A stretch of 26,201 bases of DNA. Origin: an uncultured Candidatus Saccharibacteria bacterium. GTDB taxonomy: Bacteria > Patescibacteriota > Minisyncoccia > Phycocordibacterales > CAZXUM01. Location of the stretch: contig CAZXUM010000001.1 in NCBI GenBank assembly GCA_964644005.1, positions 1-26,201 of the forward strand, given 5' to 3'. Made by a program: the position numbers and the translations under genes. Below, one piece after another: positions 16,187-26,200 of the stretch. How positions within the stretch are numbered: position 1 is the stretch's first letter; each line of letters starts with the position of its first letter. A model generated the notes under the pieces. The model was given only the letters and a program-made list of their open reading frames with translations. It made no database searches and was not told the origin of the DNA.

Positions 16187-18280
16187 CTAGAGCGTTTTGA
16201 GCAATTGTTCAACTACTTCTTTCAATTCTGGGTGTTCGGTGCTAATTCGTGTAAGTATGGTGCGCGCTTCGGCAGTTCGTTTTGCATATTTCATTGCTGC
16301 CCAAATACGGGTGTCAGAAACGAGATCTTCTGGTGCCATGACGGCGAGTAATTCATTTGCAACAACAGTTTTATTAAAGAACAGAGCGGCAACGAGATAA
16401 TTTTTTTGAATTGCAGGAAACTGCGGACCGAGTGTGTAGGCTTTTGCCAATGCAGCAAGACCTTTTTCAACTTGATCAACCTGCAAGTATCGCGTACCGA
16501 GCTCAAGGAGGAAGGCTTCCTTTTCGGGCGAGAGTGCGAGCGCAGCTTCAAGATAGGTGAACGACAAATCAGGCACATTAAAATTACTGAGGTACGTGCC
16601 CATGAAAAATTGGTACCGCGCGTCTTCTGGTGTTCGGCGTACCTGAACTTCAAGCGCCTGCGCTGCTGTCTTAAAGAACGCCTGTTTCGACTCATCACTT
16701 ACCGGCAATCGAGTAATGTTTGATACGATTTGATACGCCTGTTCAGCAACTTCTGCCCGAGCAAATGAGTCGCGATCAATCAAGTCAGTGAGCTCAGTGT
16801 GTATTTGATCAACGCGCTGCTGCTGTGTTTGAGCACCGAGCGGTTGCTGCTGGAGCGACATGAGACGAATAAGGCCCTTTGAGGTAGCTGATCCGTTTGC
16901 TGAAACCGGAACACTGTAGAGAACAAACAGTACCAAGACAGAGCATGCTACCAACACGACACCCTGTGATACACGACTCGGGGTCGACGGTGCAGAAGTA
17001 TGCTGGTCACGGTAACTGCGGCCGGCGGTGTTTATGTATGCAAACCATGCAAAAAATGGGATGTAGCTAACGATACTATCGAAAACGAATAAATTGTGTA
17101 CCGTGTAGGCAACAATCATGCCGGTAATGACCGCCTTTTCTACTAGTGAATGGCCGGTGTGTCTCCACAGCGTCCACAGTAACACCACGAATAACGAGAA
17201 GTAGCTGAGCAAACCGAGCAATCCCCCAGCAATAAACCAATCAAGGATCACATTGTGCGTTCGATCGAACCACTGCTCCTGCAAGAAGAGGCGTGGATCG
17301 TAGTATTTGTTGAATACGTAGTTAAAATTTTCTTGTCCCCAGCCGAGGAGTGGTCGTTCTTGAACACCTTCAAGAGCCATACCCCAAATAATGAAGCGCG
17401 GCGTTTCAGAAATGTTTTCAAGGGTAATGCCGCGGAAGCGAGAGAGCACACGGCTCTCCTGCACAAACGATGTATTTTGCGCAACCATAAACCCAGCAAT
17501 AACGAGCACAACCGCAATAACCCCACCGAGTGCAATTTTTTGGATGGTAGGATGACGGCGCCGAGCAGTAACTGCAAGAATAAGGGCGGTGACACCAGCT
17601 CCAGCAAGAAAACCGAGGAGCGCTCCACGAGTACCGGTGTAGTACAAAATAATAGTCATGAACGGCACGAGCGACCACACAATCCAACGCTGCCAGTGGC
17701 GGAATCGATACCCAAGCGCAAGGGCGGTAAAAATATGGAAAATCATGTACACCGCCAAGTAGGCTGAGTTGCCAATGTTTGCATCCAAACGATCTGCACT
17801 CTGGTTGATTGTTGTTTCTCCTACCAACTGTGTAAAACCGTAGATGGTAACGTACGCCGCAACACCAACAGATGTCGCAAACCAACGAATCCACAGCTTT
17901 TCGGTGAATACCGTTGTTGTCATGAGAGCGAACAGCGCCAGGTGTGCAAGTGTTACAAATCCTTCCATGCGTTCAAAGTTTGACCAAAAACTTTTAAACG
18001 GACTAATACCAAACACATCTGCTGCTGCAATAATGAGGGTAAACACGGTCAAAGCAATGGTCATTGCAGTTGCACGAGGACGATACTGCGGTGTAGTGAA
18101 CCAGGTTACCACCCATGCGACAGCGGCAATTTCAACCAGAATTCTGAAAAAAAAATTCTTTCCGGTAATGAACGGAAAGAAGTAGGCGCTAAACACTATC
18201 GTTGGAACAAGTGTCACCAAAAAAAGACACCCGACCATGCAATACCGCGCGAGTGTACCAGTCATCGATGTGCCATTCAT
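16187..18280 (-). CDS. O-antigen ligase / PglL-like multipass protein with TPR-like C-terminal domain (start more likely 18280, MNGTS)
   Basis: SFWSNFERMEG, IGNSAYLA, YTGTRGA, RPLLGWGQENF, WFDRTHNVILD, then helical repeats (ALALSPEK, AYTLGPQF). Confidence 0.88.
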   Translation of the reverse strand: MNGTSMTGTLARYCMVGCLFLVTLVPTIVFSAYFFPFITGKNFFFRILVEIAAVAWVVTWFTTPQYRPRATAMTIALTVFTLIIAAADVFGISPFKSFWSNFERMEGFVTLAHLALFALMTTTVFTEKLWIRWFATSVGVAAYVTIYGFTQLVGETTINQSADRLDANIGNSAYLAVYMIFHIFTALALGYRFRHWQRWIVWSLVPFMTIILYYTGTRGALLGFLAGAGVTALILAVTARRRHPTIQKIALGGVIAVVLVIAGFMVAQNTSFVQESRVLSRFRGITLENISETPRFIIWGMALEGVQERPLLGWGQENFNYVFNKYYDPRLFLQEQWFDRTHNVILDWFIAGGLLGLLSYFSLFVVLLWTLWRHTGHSLVEKAVITGMIVAYTVHNLFVFDSIVSYIPFFAWFAYINTAGRSYRDQHTSAPSTPSRVSQGVVLVACSVLVLFVLYSVPVSANGSATSKGLIRLMSLQQQPLGAQTQQQRVDQIHTELTDLIDRDSFARAEVAEQAYQIVSNITRLPVSDESKQAFFKTAAQALEVQVRRTPEDARYQFFMGTYLSNFNVPDLSFTYLEAALALSPEKEAFLLELGTRYLQVDQVEKGLAALAKAYTLGPQFPAIQKNYLVAALFFNKTVVANELLAVMAPEDLVSDTRIWAAMKYAKRTAEARTILTRISTEHPELKEVVEQLLKTL

Positions 18281-18335
18281 GGGTGCGAGTATAGCATGGA
18301 AAAGTGGGAGCAAGTTATGTTAGACTCACACATAT

Positions 18336-19385
18336 ATGAAAAAAGCTCTGATCACGGGGATCACTGGACAAGATGGCTCATACCTTGCAGAATTATTGCT
18401 CGAAAAAGACTACATCGTGCACGGATTAATCCGCCGCAGCTCATCATTTAATACTGAACGGTTGGCGCACATTTACCAAAAACCTCAAAGTGTTGATCGT
18501 CGATTATTTCTCCACTACGGCGACATTAACGATTCATCGTCGCTCTCACGTCTCATTGAAAAAATTAAACCTAATGAAATTTATCACCTCGCAGCACAGA
18601 GTCACGTTCGGGTAAGTTTTGATATCCCTGAGTACACCGCTGACGCTACGGGTATCGGCACCTTGCGTATTCTCGACGCGATTAAAGAATCGGGTGTTGC
18701 AACAAAATTTTACCAAGCGTCATCATCTGAAATGTTCGGCAAGGTGCTCGAAACACCTCAAAAAGAAACAACACCCTTCTATCCCCGCTCTCCATACGGC
18801 GTTGCAAAAGTATTTAGCTATTGGATCACTAAAAATTACCGCGAGAGTTACAACATCTTTGCGAGCAACGGTATCTTGTTTAACCACGAGTCACCTCGTC
18901 GCGGCGAAACCTTTGTAACCCGAAAAATCACTCGCGGACTCACTCGTATCAAAGTTGGTCTCGAAAAAGTGCTCTACCTTGGTAATCTTGATGCAAAACG
19001 CGACTGGGGATATGCAAAAGATTACGTCGAAGGTATGTGGAGAATGCTCCAACACGACACTCCAGACGATTTTATTCTTGCAACAAACGAAACACACAGT
19101 ATTCGAGAATTTGCGGAGGTGTGCGCCAAGCATCTTGGATACGATCTGATATGGGAAGGTACTGGTCTTGAGGAGAAAGGAATTGATGCAAAGACTGGCG
19201 TGCAGCTTATTGGTATCGACCCGCGCTATTTTCGCCCTGCAGAAGTAGAATTTTTACAGGGAGATTTTTCAAAAGCACAGAAGGCCTTCGGCTGGAGTCC
19301 ATCAGTCACTTTTGCAGAATTAGCTCGATTAATGACGGACGCAGACATGCGTATCGCCGAACAAGAAAAAAAACATGGACACTAA
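18336..19385 (+). CDS. gmd: GDP-mannose 4,6-dehydratase
   Basis: [61 protein letters not shown]. Confidence 0.99.
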
Positions 19386-20316
19386 TTCAAAAATTTTCGT
19401 TGCAGGACACAATGGACTGGTAGGATCAGCGATTGTGCGAGCGCTCCGTGGCGCAGGACACACAAACATCTGCACACGCACTCGCCAAGAACTTGATTTG
19501 CTCGATACGGCTGCGGTTCACTCTTTCTTCACAACAGAGAAACCTGAGTACATCTTTGTTGCTGCTGCAAAAGTAGGAGGTATCAACGCTAACAACACTA
19601 AGCCAGCGGAATTTATTTACGAAAACCTCACCATCCAGTCAAATATCATTCACAACGCATACCTCTCTGGTGTAACAAAACTACTGTTTCTCGGCAGCTC
19701 ATGCATCTATCCAAAACTAGCTTCCCAACCAATTAAAGAGGAGTACCTACTGAGCGGTCCACTTGAACCAACAAACAACGCGTACGCAGTAGCAAAAATT
19801 GCAGGCATCATGATGTGTCAGTCATACAACAAGCAATACGGTACAAACTACATTAGCCTCATGCCCACAAACCTCTACGGTCCTGGTGATAATTTTGATC
19901 TCTCCGCATCGCATGTGCTTCCTGCACTCATTCGAAAATTTGATGACGCCAAAAAGAGCAACGCGCCGGAAGTTGAGGTATGGGGTAGCGGAACTCCGAA
20001 ACGTGAATTTCTACACGTCGATGATTTGGCTGCAGCGTCAGTTTTTTTGATGAACAACTATAACGATTCAGAAATTGTGAACGTTGGCACCGGAGAAGAT
20101 ATTTCGATTAAAGAGGTTGCTGAGCTTATCCAGAAAACAGTCGAATACACCGGCGTTATTCGTTGGAATGCTTCGAAGCCCGATGGCACACCCCGCAAAC
20201 TACTCGATGTCAGCAAAATTCATACCCTTGGATGGAAACACGCCATTCCACTCACAGAAGGTATCATCACAACCTACCAGTGGTATCTCACCAATGTACA
20301 TACACTACGTAACTAG
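19375..20316 (+). CDS. fcl: GDP-L-fucose synthase
   Basis: [59 protein letters not shown]. Confidence 0.98.
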
Positions 20317-21340
20317 CTATCGCGACAATGCCCGCGATCTCAGTACCATACAGGGACTCAGAGAAGCAGGGGTGCACGTAACTGAGACCGAGCTCACAGA
20401 CACTGGGTGGAAAAAGTACCAACAACTCAGCCGGGCGCTCCGCTATGATACGCACAATCCTGCGTGGATTATTGTTGGGTATACTGGCGTTCTTTTTGTA
20501 CCATTCGTCCGACTCATCTCACGAACACCTATTGTGTACAATGCACTCGCCTCTTTTTATGAAGGCATGATTATTTCTCGGCAGCACGGTCAGTGGTTTT
20601 CATTGTCCTCCCTTCGCTACTGGATTACCGACACTGTCGCCTTTCATGCAGCTACATACATACTCGTTGAGAGCGAAGCACAGAGGGCGTTCATTCACCG
20701 AGTCTTTTTTGTTCCACTACGCAAACTTATTGTTCACTATACCAGTCTCGACGAACGTTCTTTTTTTCCTGATCCAGCAGTGGTGAAGCATTCGCAATTT
20801 GCTGTCGTTTTTCGTGGAAAATTTTTACCCGAAGCAGGGGTTGAAACATTAATTGCTGCGGCACCGGCACTTGCCCGCGCTGATATTCGAATTGAAATCT
20901 ACGGTCACGGCATGCTTGAAAAAAAAGTTCGAGAGCTGGTCGCTGCATCGCCAGCAAAAAATATACTGCTGGTAACAGACTTTCTACCCATCGATCACTT
21001 ACGCAACGCAATGCTGAAGTGTCACCTTTCTATTGGACAGCTTGCGCAACACCCCCGACTCACCCGAACTATTCCACACAAAGCATTTGAGAGTGCTGTA
21101 CTCAAACTACCGTACCTGACGGGCAGAAATGGTGCCGTCCTCGAACTATTCACTGAAGATGTTACCTGTTTGTGCTGCATACCCGGCGACCCACACGATC
21201 TCGCAGAAAAAATTATTGCAGCAAAAAACAATCCCGAGCACCTCGCCGCAATCAGCGAATCAGCCTATACCTTATACACCAATACATTCTCAGCCAAAGT
21301 GCTCGGAAAAAAACTGCTTATTCAACTCACATTTGCTTGA
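20294..21340 (+). CDS. GT4-family glycosyltransferase (likely start 20294; the track ORF is 5'-overextended)
   Basis: VFRGKFLPEAGVE, IPHKAFESAVLKLP, PGDPHDLAEKI; start overlaps the fcl end. Confidence 0.88.
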   Translation: MYIHYVTSYRDNARDLSTIQGLREAGVHVTETELTDTGWKKYQQLSRALRYDTHNPAWIIVGYTGVLFVPFVRLISRTPIVYNALASFYEGMIISRQHGQWFSLSSLRYWITDTVAFHAATYILVESEAQRAFIHRVFFVPLRKLIVHYTSLDERSFFPDPAVVKHSQFAVVFRGKFLPEAGVETLIAAAPALARADIRIEIYGHGMLEKKVRELVAASPAKNILLVTDFLPIDHLRNAMLKCHLSIGQLAQHPRLTRTIPHKAFESAVLKLPYLTGRNGAVLELFTEDVTCLCCIPGDPHDLAEKIIAAKNNPEHLAAISESAYTLYTNTFSAKVLGKKLLIQLTFA

Positions 21341-21954
21341 ATGTTGAGACTCAACGGTACGGGAACTCCTTGTACTGAAATTGCACGCGATGATCGATCA
21401 GAGAAGTTGTGGTGATCAACAGTGTCTGGTGACCAGAGACGGATATCTACAAAACCAAGATCACCGAGAAATGTGCGAGCGTACGCCTCATTCCAGAGCG
21501 TGTAGTGATTATCATACGGCGGTTTTTGACCAAGCACCTGATCGCGCACCACATCAACAATGCTTCCATTGCCCTGATAAATAGCGATCAGTTTATCAAA
21601 ATCAGGAACAGAAAAACGAAACGTACCGCCCGGCTTCAGTACTCGTTTCCACTCGAGAAGTGTCTGCTGTAATTTTTCACGAGGGATATGCTCAACCACA
21701 TGACTGGCATAGAGAAGATCGACACTCTTTGAAGAGAACATCGAAAGGTCCATAATGTCGTGCACATAGTGTATATTGGGAAACGTAAGAACATCGACGT
21801 TCGTAAATTCTGGACCTGAATCGTTGCCGCAGCCAACATTTACGTACACCTTGCCATCAGGATTTTTCGGCAGGGCAGGAGCCTTAATCGTCCGCTTCAT
21901 AATTTTAAAATGCTTTTTTATCACTTCGTACGGTTTAATAAGGTATCGTTTCAT
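21322..21954 (-). CDS. Class I SAM-dependent methyltransferase (glycan-locus type)
   Basis: VNVGCG, NVD, SVDLLYASHVVEHI, RVLKPGG.FRFSVPD. Confidence 0.9.
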   Translation of the reverse strand: MKRYLIKPYEVIKKHFKIMKRTIKAPALPKNPDGKVYVNVGCGNDSGPEFTNVDVLTFPNIHYVHDIMDLSMFSSKSVDLLYASHVVEHIPREKLQQTLLEWKRVLKPGGTFRFSVPDFDKLIAIYQGNGSIVDVVRDQVLGQKPPYDNHYTLWNEAYARTFLGDLGFVDIRLWSPDTVDHHNFSDRSSRAISVQGVPVPLSLNIQANVS

Positions 21955-22259: not shown

Positions 22260-23432
22260 TTAACGGTCGGGCATGAGCACGAACACTTTAGAATATATCT
22301 TTTCTAGGGGTTTTGCATAGCGGAAGAAGTTGGTACCCTTTCCGTCTTGGTACTCCATAAAAATAGTTCGATGCAATCCGAGCAGCGGTTCGAGAACGTA
22401 GTTAAAAAATCGGACACCCCATGCCGTTGTATATTTTTTCGATACCGGCAGATGCGCATGTTGTTGGTAAATAAAGTCGTACCAGCGATTTTCAGTCAGT
22501 AATATTTTTTGTGCGCCGGGGTTGTATGACAGTAGACAATTTTCTTCAAACATTAGATTGCTAAGGCTTATAATAGTATCGTCCGCAGCAATCGGAATTT
22601 TTTTAAGCTCACGAGCAACACGCAACACATTCCGTGTTGCTCGCGGCCGGAGTGAATACCGTACTCGAGAATACGTAAGAATGTGTACAGTATCAAAGGG
22701 AGCAAATACATTCTGATCACCAGCAATAGCATCCCATCGTTTATTTGGACTCTTCACCAGAACCGCTCGTAGTTCTGGACTAATACGTTTTATCCGCGCA
22801 ATACATATCGATGCGCGCAGTGCTATTGCCGGATCAGCAGCAAGAACCCACAGCGTCTTTGTATCTCCTACCGCTCGAGCGATCTCTTGAAATGCGGCAT
22901 CTTCTTCCGTAACCGACAACTGCAGTCGATCCGTCGGCGGTGACGTATCAAATGATCTGATAAAAAAAGTATCCGGCAATCCAGCAAAATAGTGGCGGTA
23001 CCGCTCAATATACTCTTCGGTAACAGCTCCCATGAGTGTGTCGATAAAAATAGCCGATCGATATCCCATAGCGTAGGCCGAAATTGAAGCGGACGACAAT
23101 GCTGAAAAGACATAGTCGACATGGTGACTCTCTCTGTACAAAAAAACTTCAGCTATCGTCGGTTCACCAATTTCAAATCCAGACAGGTCAATCAGTGACG
23201 CTTCTTTTGTTTCGTTGGGATGTGCCTGGTAGAGCAATCGGTGTTCCGGAAAATGTTTTCTGATGTATGCAAGCATCTGGTTCGTCTTTTGAATAAACCC
23301 CTGCATATTCCACCCGATCGGAAGATCACAAAAATTAGTACCAAAAAACACTACGGTTCCTGTATGAGCTCGCTGCGCCGGTCGAGAATGGTCGAGAAAA
23401 TAGGGAAAAGTAATCTTTTTGACGTTTTGCAT
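22260..23432 (-). CDS. Putative sialyltransferase-like GT-B protein with apparently swapped domain order (start more likely 23432, MQNVK)
   Basis: HP motif (LYQAHPNE) and S-S motif (VFSALSSAS) typical of CMP-binding domains, here N-terminal; adjacent to neuB and neuA. The CDS is solid; the function is inferred. Confidence 0.55.
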   Translation of the reverse strand: MQNVKKITFPYFLDHSRPAQRAHTGTVVFFGTNFCDLPIGWNMQGFIQKTNQMLAYIRKHFPEHRLLYQAHPNETKEASLIDLSGFEIGEPTIAEVFLYRESHHVDYVFSALSSASISAYAMGYRSAIFIDTLMGAVTEEYIERYRHYFAGLPDTFFIRSFDTSPPTDRLQLSVTEEDAAFQEIARAVGDTKTLWVLAADPAIALRASICIARIKRISPELRAVLVKSPNKRWDAIAGDQNVFAPFDTVHILTYSRVRYSLRPRATRNVLRVARELKKIPIAADDTIISLSNLMFEENCLLSYNPGAQKILLTENRWYDFIYQQHAHLPVSKKYTTAWGVRFFNYVLEPLLGLHRTIFMEYQDGKGTNFFRYAKPLEKIYSKVFVLMPDR

Positions 23433-23561
23433 TTCATGTATCATAACACAATCCTTTATATCATCTTTATACCCATTTGCTACTATGCAGGCAGAGAAAA
23501 ACGTGGTTTTTCAGTCACTTCTGACACTGTCCTTCGAAACACATACAAAAAGGAGAAACGA

Positions 23562-24563
23562 ATGGGACACACCATTGAGCCTGTACGGGTAGGTAACGCA
23601 CTGGTTGGCCCGGGCCACCCGACCTACGTCATTGCCGAAATCGGCATCAACCACAACGGCGACACTGATCTCACCAAGAAACTCATCGACATTGCTGCCA
23701 ACGCTGGCGCACATGCCGTAAAGTTTCAGACACGAACGATCCCCGTCGTCTACAGTCCGCAGGATTTGCAGAAACCCCGCCCCGACATTGTCGAGAAGGG
23801 TCTGCCGTACCTCAAGAACGCCATCACCCGCCGCGTCATTCCGGCACACTGTCTCACACGATTGGAGACATCCAATTTTAAAGACGGTCGCACGGAAGAG
23901 CAGAAATACATGCTCGAATTCACGGATTACGAATACGGTGAAATCGACGCGTACTGCGCACAAGTCGGCATTGCGTGGTCAGTCTCATGTTGGGACGTCG
24001 CTTCTGTGGAACGCATGGAGCAGTTCAACCTGCCGTTCCACAAGATTGCCTCACCGTGCAATGAAGACGACGATCTTCTTGTTGCCATGCGAGCAACTGG
24101 TCGTCCGCTCATTTTCTCGACGGGAATGTCGACACTCGAAAGTATCCGTGTCTCCATCGGATTACTCGGCGGCACTGACAATCTCATTCTCATGAATTGC
24201 ACCAGCGTGTACCCGCAAGGGACAAGCACGCCGGAGCTTGTGCTTCCGCTCGTTAATCTGCGGGGCATCGGCACTCTGCGAGAAGCATTCGGTGTTCCGG
24301 TTGGTCAGTCCAGCCACGACACCGGCATTGTGCCGACGTACGCGGCTGTCGCTCAGGGCGCTGACTTGATTGAAAAACATATCACCATCGAACGGGGTAT
24401 GTACGGTTCCGACCAGGCCGCTTCGGTCGAACCCGACGAGTTTGCGCGACTATGCCAATGGATTCGTGATCTGCAATTGGCCAACGGCGACGGGAAGATT
24501 ACTATCTACCCCGATGAGCAGGCGGCTATCAACAAGCTACGCCGTGTCCGACGCGTGATCTGA
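23562..24563 (+). CDS. neuB: N-acetylneuraminate (nonulosonate) synthase family, short type without SAF domain (start 23562 after SD AGGAG)
   Basis: VIAEIGINHNG, KFQ, KIAS, STGM, CTSVYP, SSHD, IEKHIT, SDQAASVEP. Confidence 0.93.
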   Translation: MGHTIEPVRVGNALVGPGHPTYVIAEIGINHNGDTDLTKKLIDIAANAGAHAVKFQTRTIPVVYSPQDLQKPRPDIVEKGLPYLKNAITRRVIPAHCLTRLETSNFKDGRTEEQKYMLEFTDYEYGEIDAYCAQVGIAWSVSCWDVASVERMEQFNLPFHKIASPCNEDDDLLVAMRATGRPLIFSTGMSTLESIRVSIGLLGGTDNLILMNCTSVYPQGTSTPELVLPLVNLRGIGTLREAFGVPVGQSSHDTGIVPTYAAVAQGADLIEKHITIERGMYGSDQAASVEPDEFARLCQWIRDLQLANGDGKITIYPDEQAAINKLRRVRRVI

Positions 24564-24700: not shown

Positions 24701-25447
24701 ATGAACACTCCGCAGCCTGTTGTTGCCATTATTCCCGCTCGAGGCGGTTCAAAGGGAGTGCCCCGAAAAAACATTTACTCTCTCGGTGGATTCCCCCTTG
24801 TTGCGTATTCAATTGTTGCGGCAACGCTGGCAAAAAAAGTTGACCGAGTAATTGTAAGTACCGACGACGAAGAAATCGCTGCTGTTGCAAAAAAATTTGG
24901 TGCCGAAGTTCCCTTCATTCGCCCGCAGCAATTCGCAACAGACGCTTCGCCCGACTACCACTATCTGCACCACGCGCTCGAGTGGTTTGAGAAAAATGAA
25001 CCTGCCCAGCCGAAGTATTTTGTAAACCTTCGTCCAACAACACCGGTTCGCAATCCACAGCACATTGATGCCGCTATCGAGCTCATACAGCAGCACCCCG
25101 AGGCAAGCTCGCTTCGCTCTGGTCATGAAATTCGCGAATCTCCGTATAAATTATTCGGCATCGAAAACGGTTTTTTCACCGGTCTATTCCCCGACGATCC
25201 GCGCGACGATTACTACGACTTACCGCGCCAAACGTTTCCACCGGTCTACCTACCCGATGGCTACGTCGATATTATCGTTACCGATTGGATTCGCAACAAC
25301 CCAACTGCCCACGGTAAAAAAATCCTTGCCTATGCCAGCCCTGATACGGGCGAAGTAGATCGCATCGAAGATTTTAATTTCATCAAGTACACCCTCGAAA
25401 AAGGAGACTGGGAAATTTACGACTATCTCAAGAAGAATTTTAGCTAA
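24701..25447 (+). CDS. neuA: Acylneuraminate cytidylyltransferase (CMP-nonulosonate synthetase)
   Basis: IIPARGGSKGVPRKNI, VIVSTDDEEIAAVAK, VPFIRP, LRPTTP, EVDRIEDF. Confidence 0.95.
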   Translation: MNTPQPVVAIIPARGGSKGVPRKNIYSLGGFPLVAYSIVAATLAKKVDRVIVSTDDEEIAAVAKKFGAEVPFIRPQQFATDASPDYHYLHHALEWFEKNEPAQPKYFVNLRPTTPVRNPQHIDAAIELIQQHPEASSLRSGHEIRESPYKLFGIENGFFTGLFPDDPRDDYYDLPRQTFPPVYLPDGYVDIIVTDWIRNNPTAHGKKILAYASPDTGEVDRIEDFNFIKYTLEKGDWEIYDYLKKNFS

Positions 25448-25465: not shown

Positions 25466-26200
25466 TTAGTACAACGCCTCCTGTAACACAGCGAACACTT
25501 CGCGAAGCGCAGGAATAGTAATCGTCAGCGGCGGCGCAATTTTAATTGAGTGCTTGTTAGTACATACCGGCAAGACACCATTACGGATACAGGCGTGCAC
25601 GACTCGCGTCGCATCTTCTGTTGTGTGAAAAATGAGAGCAGCAATCATACCGCGCACATTCACCTGCTTAATAAGCGGCGATGACGTGAGTGCGCGGAGT
25701 CGGTCCTCAAAAAAGCGCATCGTTTTTTCACGAGCGGCTATCCGTTTTTTATCTGACAAAAATTCAATGTTTGCGAGAGCCGCAGCACACACTACCGCAT
25801 TACCCGATTGTGTTCCGTGCAGGTCGGCTTTTTCATCGAGGTCGATAATCTCTTTGCGACTGAGCACCGCACCGAGTGGTAGTGATGATGAAATACCCTT
25901 GCCGAGACCGAGGATGTCGGGTTTGATATCGCTGCCGTAGGTCATGTAGCCATACAGTGGTCCCATGCGATAAAATCCTGCTTGCATTTCATCAAAGGCA
26001 ACCAGCGCTCCCACTTTTTTAGCAAACGATGAAAGATCGTTCAAAAATCCTTTTGGATACATCCACGCGCCCCATCCTTGAAACGTTTCAACAACAAATC
26101 CCGCAATCTCCTTGTGTGGCGGTAATTTTTTTGGATCGAATGTTTCTGTTCCTTCGTACGGAAATTCTAAAAAGTGTACACCGGGGTCGGTAACATTCGA
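25466..26200 (-). CDS. Class III PLP-dependent aminotransferase, 5' part beyond window edge
   Basis: Frame is open to the window end (…IAGFVVETFQGWGA…); FDEMQAGF.R, LGKGI (PLP lysine), GTQSGN, IKIAPPL. Confidence 0.92.
   Translation of the reverse strand, partial: SNVTDPGVHFLEFPYEGTETFDPKKLPPHKEIAGFVVETFQGWGAWMYPKGFLNDLSSFAKKVGALVAFDEMQAGFYRMGPLYGYMTYGSDIKPDILGLGKGISSSLPLGAVLSRKEIIDLDEKADLHGTQSGNAVVCAAALANIEFLSDKKRIAAREKTMRFFEDRLRALTSSPLIKQVNVRGMIAALIFHTTEDATRVVHACIRNGVLPVCTNKHSIKIAPPLTITIPALREVFAVLQEALY

Follow-up and report, generated by a model that had tools for sequence, protein, structure and literature searches.

GT-B is one of the two great glycosyltransferase (GT) folds. In GT-B enzymes the C-terminal helix runs back to the N-terminal domain and, to our knowledge, all those described so far have the acceptor domain in front of the donor domain. 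The HP motif is a donor-binding motif defined for families GT38, GT52 and GT80; its role in the binding of CMP-Neu5Ac (cytidine monophosphate-N-acetylneuraminic acid) has been shown, and its histidine contacts the CMP phosphate in enzymes of the three families (PMC2169525). Here we analysed a stretch of 26,201 nucleotides from an uncultured Candidatus Saccharibacteria bacterium (contig CAZXUM010000001.1; hereafter the window), and in it a gene for a 394-residue protein in which the two GT-B domains stand in reverse order. An earlier note on this DNA had described the protein as sialyltransferase-like and apparently circularly permuted.

Circular permutation and its origin

The 394-residue protein (the query) was compared exhaustively by phmmer with 1.8 billion representative proteins, which yielded 138 relatives. 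Close relatives (E < 1e-30) are collinear with the query; in distant relatives of about 400 residues, query residues 6-170 correspond to residues ~220-390 and query residues ~195-390 to residues ~2-200. The query contains two Rossmann-like α/β domains, as in the GT-B superfamily, and the usual succession of an acceptor N-domain and a nucleotide-binding C-domain is reversed in it. When the hits were scored against query domain A (1-175) and domain B (191-394), 67 proteins read A-B, as the query does, and at least 26 read B-A, the canonical order. In many further hits of about 400 residues domain A was detectable at the C-terminal end only, and the list also holds short A-only and B-only proteins, which are indistinguishable from contig-end fragments.

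Pairwise comparisons gave the same swapped pattern. By BLASTP, query residues 196-389 align to residues 2-193 of the relative P0092 (E 1e-12) and residues 27-194 to its residues 224-387 (E 2e-11); comparison with the canonical-order P0074 agreed with this. By hhalign, residues 6-171 match P0074 230-392 (E 8e-46) and residues 194-392 match P0074 13-216 (E 1e-32, probability 99.9%). Moreover, residues 164-194 align to P0074 385-416, up to the last residue of that protein, so that hardly any sequence separates the old C-terminus from the old N-terminus. The cut site corresponds to the 13 residues that lie between both domains in P0074 (216 to 230), while residues 171-195 form the new junction, the sole covalent link into domain B. 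In the AlphaFold2 (AF2) models, the order of secondary-structure elements in the query is a cyclic rotation of that in a canonical relative: canonical helix 397-414 is query helix 178-192, which is directly followed by strand 197-202, the equivalent of canonical strand 16-21. The returning helix of the GT-B fold is kept in the query but is now internal. The AF2 model of the query has a predicted local distance difference test (pLDDT) score of 88.4 and a predicted template modelling (pTM) score of 0.87.

We therefore consider the circular permutation secure, and the suspicion raised by the earlier note is borne out by BLASTP, by hhalign and by the cyclic order in the models. The segments it had quoted are all present, in 394-residue numbering: VVFFGTN (31-37), YQAHPNE (72-78), VFSALSSAS (112-120), the polar DTSPP...EEDAA (166-184), TLWVLAADP (197-205) and ILLTENRW (314-321), together with the terminal YAKPLEKIYSKVFVL (376-390) and KKITFPYF (9-16). 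Its proposal that the C-terminus would read on into the N-terminus is borne out by P0074, where only 13 residues part the equivalents of the query's last strand (to 216) and first strand (from 230).

All 13 complete loci in Patescibacteria genomes, from independent assemblies labelled Vogelbacteria, Kaiserbacteria, Yanofskybacteria, Paceibacterota or 'Saccharibacteria', read A-B in one frame on the DNA, and all 71 two-domain metagenome loci fetched with a canonical query read B-A. Locus contexts were fetched with the tighter alignment subsets A3 and A5, not with the full alignments A1 and A4. So far the permuted form is found in Patescibacteria only. In a tree of 59 permuted and 49 canonical-order proteins, for which all sequences were re-ordered to B+A, the 59 permuted proteins lie on one side of a single branch (Shimodaira-Hasegawa-like approximate likelihood ratio test, SH-aLRT, 99). 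One state change suffices on this tree, and as few were found in 0 of 500 label shuffles. The tree comes from a quick search and its junction columns may add some signal; it provides good, not final, evidence that the permuted form arose once. Among proteins of 691-2000 residues there were no tandem or duplicated intermediates, which is weak evidence, and none of the loci examined has more than one copy of either domain.

Sialyltransferase likeness and proposed function

In an exhaustive VIA-align search with the query model, the top four matches were solved bacterial sialyltransferases, aligned through their C-terminal CMP-binding domains to query residues ~13-168: a GT38 polysialyltransferase (5wc6, score 11.6), PmST1 of GT80 (2ilv, 11.0), Neisseria NST of GT52 (2yk4, 10.4) and a Photobacterium sialyltransferase of GT80 (2zwi, 10.2). 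The query matches known structures one domain at a time only. Whole-chain Foldseek gave only poor GT-B alignments (TM ~0.2, root mean square deviation ~19 Å), which are uninformative alone and are expected from a permuted chain. The model of a relative with canonical order shows the entire GT-B fold, and its best Foldseek match is a bacterial polysialyltransferase. At the sequence level, the Pfam family PF07388 (alpha-2,8-polysialyltransferase, GT38) is matched by 8 of 45 canonical relatives at E values up to 1 (best 6.8e-10), and in one of them, P0162, the match exceeds the gathering cut-off (24.3 versus 23.3 bits) and spans the HP and serine region. The protein-language-model neighbours of the query in the ESM Atlas carry PF07388 or PF07922.

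The motifs point in the same direction. H75, P76 and S117 are invariant in the 59 permuted proteins and 98-100% conserved in the 49 canonical ones, and are thus not chance occurrences (Table 1). The HP motif lies, as in bacterial GT-B sialyltransferases, in the CMP-binding domain, with 98-100% conservation across the 108 proteins. FSALSSAS supplies the Ser/Thr pair of those enzymes, its equivalence to that of PmST1 being judged from spacing only. In PmST1 the corresponding residues would be H311, E338 and S355, with a spacing that resembles 75/99/117 of the query, and S355/S356 are the serine pair that binds the CMP phosphate. By analogy with this numbering, E99 may be a ribose-binding residue. 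Further residues are conserved in both topologies, in domain A (G35, N55, R62, Y72, E78, E81, S114 and G127 beside H75, P76, E99 and S117) and in domain B (W199, P205, W237, F250, D289, N302, S306, G356, L357 and Y376).

We consider it likely that the protein is a CMP-nonulosonate transferase and represents a new clade, permuted and related to GT38; it probably caps a surface glycan. For nonulosonate transfer taken by itself we lean towards the same answer with somewhat less assurance, on contextual grounds: genes for a NeuB-family synthase and a CTP_transf_3 cytidylyltransferase are adjacent, and of the 14 homologous Patescibacteria loci, 11 have a NeuB homologue no farther than 8 kb from the permuted gene, usually as the immediate neighbour. 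Two of the three loci without it have less than 850 bp of upstream sequence, and across the phylum no more than 78 of the 401 sampled genomes contain NeuB. From this neighbourhood we read the protein as a transferase whose donor would be the CMP-nonulosonate made at this locus and whose acceptor would be a methylated glycan that contains fucose.

In the permuted protein, the CMP-binding domain with its HP, Glu and Ser motifs comes first and the acceptor-side domain second. Cutting of the old inter-domain linker has created the new termini, and the old C-terminal helix continues directly into the first strand of the acceptor-side domain. We propose as donor a CMP-activated nonulosonic acid, for whose synthesis NeuB and the cytidylyltransferase next door would be responsible. 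The leaving group, the CMP phosphate, would be stabilised by H75, while S114/S117 and E99 would hold phosphate and ribose. The acceptor would be a glycan assembled by the products of the GDP-fucose, GT4, methyltransferase and Wzy_C-ligase genes nearby, and the transfer would probably cap a surface glycan.

Several observations weigh against this assignment. The query itself matches no sialyltransferase hidden Markov model, PF07388 included, in Pfam at up to E 10; nor does it match any other Pfam or NCBIfam family even at E 10. A sequence search of the Protein Data Bank (PDB) with the query gave no match, the family profiles (A1, A2) found nothing useful there and no solved sialyltransferase, and P0162 gave chance matches only. 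The strict D/E-D/E-G motif, which carries the catalytic base in the acceptor-side domain, is absent from the query, as the earlier note had suspected; the candidates for it are E300-E301-N302, D288-D289 (D289 conserved at 93% in permuted and 80% in canonical proteins) and E352...G356. At position 234, which lies in the acceptor-side motif H-R-R-W / H-x-Y-W, the query has Asn (N234), and His stands there in about 75% of the permuted and 78% of the canonical proteins. Neither a NeuC-type epimerase (PF02350) nor a DegT aminotransferase (PF01041) appears in the source genome, which is 93% complete. The pathway to the nonulosonate thus looks non-standard, and the product of the locus is possibly Kdn-like (3-deoxynonulosonic acid) or a new amino sugar acid. 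Finally, most of the fetched canonical relatives do not lie beside NeuB. In these metagenomes, apparently mostly from soil, a radical SAM (S-adenosylmethionine) gene lies upstream in 30 of 41 loci of at least 6 kb, and the donor may therefore vary across the wider family.

A rival reading keeps the permuted GT-B transferase but gives it another donor (CMP-Kdo, that is CMP-3-deoxy-D-manno-octulosonic acid, or a related ulosonic acid, CDP-glycerol or an NDP-sugar), NeuB being linked to it only because both belong to a shared glycan island. We judge this unlikely. Sialyltransferase C-domains score 2-3 Z units above Kdo transferases or TagF, the Pfam matches of the family are to PF07388 and not to Capsule_synth, with Glyphos_transf appearing once only (E 0.23), and most permuted loci have NeuB as the immediate neighbour. 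The protein might instead not be a transferase at all but a divergent permuted GT-B enzyme acting on sugar nucleotides, for instance a hydrolysing UDP-sugar 2-epimerase of NeuC type, which would supply NeuB and stand in for the missing NeuC. With UDP-GlcNAc 2-epimerase/NeuC the query shares whole-chain GT-B fold similarity only, and the top 50 matches of its domain A, led by the four sialyltransferases, contain no epimerase. PF02350 is matched neither by the query nor by any of the 45 canonical relatives, eight of which match PF07388, and in L017 and L015 a family member stands beside a genuine Epimerase_2 gene and hence does not replace it there. On this domain-level fold ranking, the Pfam matches and the co-occurrence with true epimerases we rejected the NeuC-like reading, which we hold to be very unlikely.

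An artefact, in the form of a misassembled or rearranged functionless frame, or a decayed gene, could be suspected from the rarity of the permuted gene, which among 401 sampled genomes of the phylum occurs in one, the source genome itself. However, 59 distinct full-length permuted proteins of 30-50% identity keep the catalytic-type residues, 13 independent assemblies agree on the order within a single open frame, the AF2 model, with a pTM of 0.87, is a confident one, and synteny is conserved. Artefact and pseudogene readings were rejected on these conservation data, and we regard them as extremely improbable. The likeness to sialyltransferases seen in the earlier note is supported by the fold, the conserved HP, Glu and Ser residues, the PF07388 matches in 8 of 45 canonical relatives, the protein-language-model neighbours and the NeuB synteny. 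None of the outcomes that would have spoken against it (a fold other than GT-B, halves matching non-transferase families, unconserved HP and serine residues) was observed.

Gene neighbourhood

The permuted gene is single-copy in the 611-kb source genome. AAGGA precedes the ATG at 23444 by 7 nt, and the start at 23432 given in the earlier note is Met5 of the same frame; thus either start is possible. The public copy of the protein begins at Met5. Throughout the family, in both topologies, the current annotation is hypothetical protein only. The gene is divergent from neuB, and the region between them contains no convincing sigma-70 site (Table 1).

Table 1. Features of the permuted gene and its neighbours in the window. 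Conservation is given as permuted (n = 59) / canonical-order (n = 49) proteins; aa, amino acids.
Feature	Position	Strand	Remarks
Permuted transferase-like gene	22260..23444	-	394-aa open reading frame, stop-free translation; alternative start Met5 at 23432
Domain A, aa 6-170	22935..23429	-	Nucleotide/CMP-binding, Rossmann-like; corresponds to C-terminal domain of ordinary relatives
HP motif YQAHPNE, aa 72-78 (H75-P76)	23211..23231	-	H75 100%/98%, P76 100%/100%
E99 in IAEVF, between HP and serine motifs	23148..23150	-	93%/94%; candidate ribose-binding residue
Serine motif FSALSSAS, aa 113-120	23085..23108	-	S117 100%/100%, S114 83%/88%
Junction, aa 171-195	22860..22934	-	Polar stretch and helix 178-192; old C-terminal tail/helix of canonical fold
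Domain B, aa 196-390	22275..22859	-	Acceptor-side, Rossmann-like; corresponds to N-terminal domain of ordinary relatives
N234	22743-22745	-	
Divergent intergenic region, transferase gene to neuB	23445..23561	.	117 bp; Shine-Dalgarno-like sequences for both genes
NeuB-family nonulosonate synthase	23562..24563	+	333 aa from MGHT...; PF03102 E 2.8e-56; AGGAG before ATG
CTP_transf_3 cytidylyltransferase, CMP-nonulosonate synthetase-like	24701..25447	+	PF02348 E 1.3e-22
Class-III aminotransferase	25466..26200	-	PF00202 E 5.9e-36; cut by window end
SAM methyltransferase	21322..21954	-	PF08241; downstream of transferase gene, same strand
Wzy_C (O-antigen ligase family) protein	16187-18313	-	708 aa; adjoins GDP-fucose genes

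In the syntenic Vogelbacteria locus L004 the cytidylyltransferase is 76% identical, and the class-III aminotransferase is kept there beside NeuA and NeuB. Elsewhere in Patescibacteria, many NeuB matches fall in open frames of ~625-670 residues, about twice the size of NeuB (for example G085:C2:19766-20479, G061, G008, G022), an indication that a NeuB fusion protein is widespread within one family of the phylum.

On the other side, a homologue of the methyltransferase gene follows the permuted gene on its strand, by about 65 bp or less in L005 and L006 and by 1.8-3.4 kb in L003 and L004. The permuted members P0008, P0009, P0012 and L004:7983-9938 (~645-651 residues) carry a C-terminal Methyltransf_24/CmcI-type sugar O-methyltransferase domain, whereas the window has a separate Methyltransf_11 gene downstream of the transferase gene. 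Beyond it the window contains genes for a GT4 glycosyltransferase, a GDP-mannose dehydratase, a GDP-fucose synthase and the Wzy_C protein, homologues of which are kept near the permuted gene in L003, L004, L006 and L010. In an organism without lipopolysaccharide, the Wzy_C protein could be a PglL-like protein O-oligosaccharyltransferase. The GDP-fucose synthase gene (19375-20316) is overlapped by ~23 nt by the GT4 gene (20294-21340), whose probable start is the ATG at 20294; a longer TTG-started GT4 frame from 20084 is probably not real.

As to the canonical-order relatives, the pairing with radical SAM genes suggests a different role for that clade. L028:6703-9167 and L063 are among the 30 loci with this pairing. 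The two such loci that were annotated have housekeeping or unrelated neighbours and no nonulosonate genes nearby, while L017, among the closest canonical relatives fetched from metagenomes, lies within a full nonulosonate locus.

Comparison with known glycosyltransferases

In full-text literature searches we came across no natural permutation of a GT-B enzyme or a sialyltransferase, and nothing on nonulosonic acids in Patescibacteria. It is tempting to propose that the protein belongs to the first natural circularly permuted GT-B lineage, a single-origin, Patescibacteria-specific clade that would found a new CAZy-level family of nonulosonic-acid transferases, with domains tethered only via the former C-terminal helix; we would give this full proposal slightly less than an even chance. 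If it is true, the tether would alter how the hinge works as the GT-B enzyme opens and closes, and the clade would offer a natural template for domain-order engineering of sialyltransferases. The permuted clade would establish that the GT-B fold tolerates cutting of its inter-domain linker and joining of its termini, and that rules based on motif order, with D/E-D/E-G before HP, can miss real sialyltransferases. Moreover, some Patescibacteria are missing a nonulosonate transferase, and the protein is a candidate for it, NeuB being present in about one fifth of the sampled genomes of the phylum, whose surface glycans probably matter for their episymbiotic lifestyle and for phage evasion.

That GT-B halves can be separated and rejoined in evolution is known from the split Alg14/Alg13 and EpsE/EpsF proteins (MurG-like, GT28/GT1), and Alg14-Alg13 fusions are named in the canonical order; both their family and their donor, UDP-GlcNAc, are unrelated to those of the query (PMC4973528). 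The Tannerella forsythia transferases of pseudaminic/legionaminic acid (Pse/Leg) derivatives, Tanf_01245 and TFUB4_00887, are nonulosonate transferases that do not belong to the classical sialyltransferase families; they carry HP and D/E-D/E-G motifs and serve a protein O-glycan pathway (PMC5420450). They differ from the query in their TagB-like architecture and canonical order. The GT80 and GT52 sialyltransferases PmST1 (2ILV), Photobacterium (2ZWI) and Neisseria NST (2YK4) have no sequence-level match to the query and different N-domains, and the query is permuted. The GT38/PF07388 polysialyltransferases (Mannheimia haemolytica PST, 5WC6/5WCN, and NmB-polyST) have the canonical order, while the query is reversed, without a PF07388 match, the strict D/E-D/E-G motif or evidence for polymerisation or a capsule export locus, and its host belongs to the Patescibacteria. 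The canonical-order relatives of the same family from Verrucomicrobiota, Chloroflexota and soil metagenomes (for example P0074, P0075, P0083) are homologous to the query in both domains (E 1e-32 and 8e-46) and keep the same conserved residues, but place the N-domain before the C-domain and mostly stand beside a radical SAM gene instead of NeuB.
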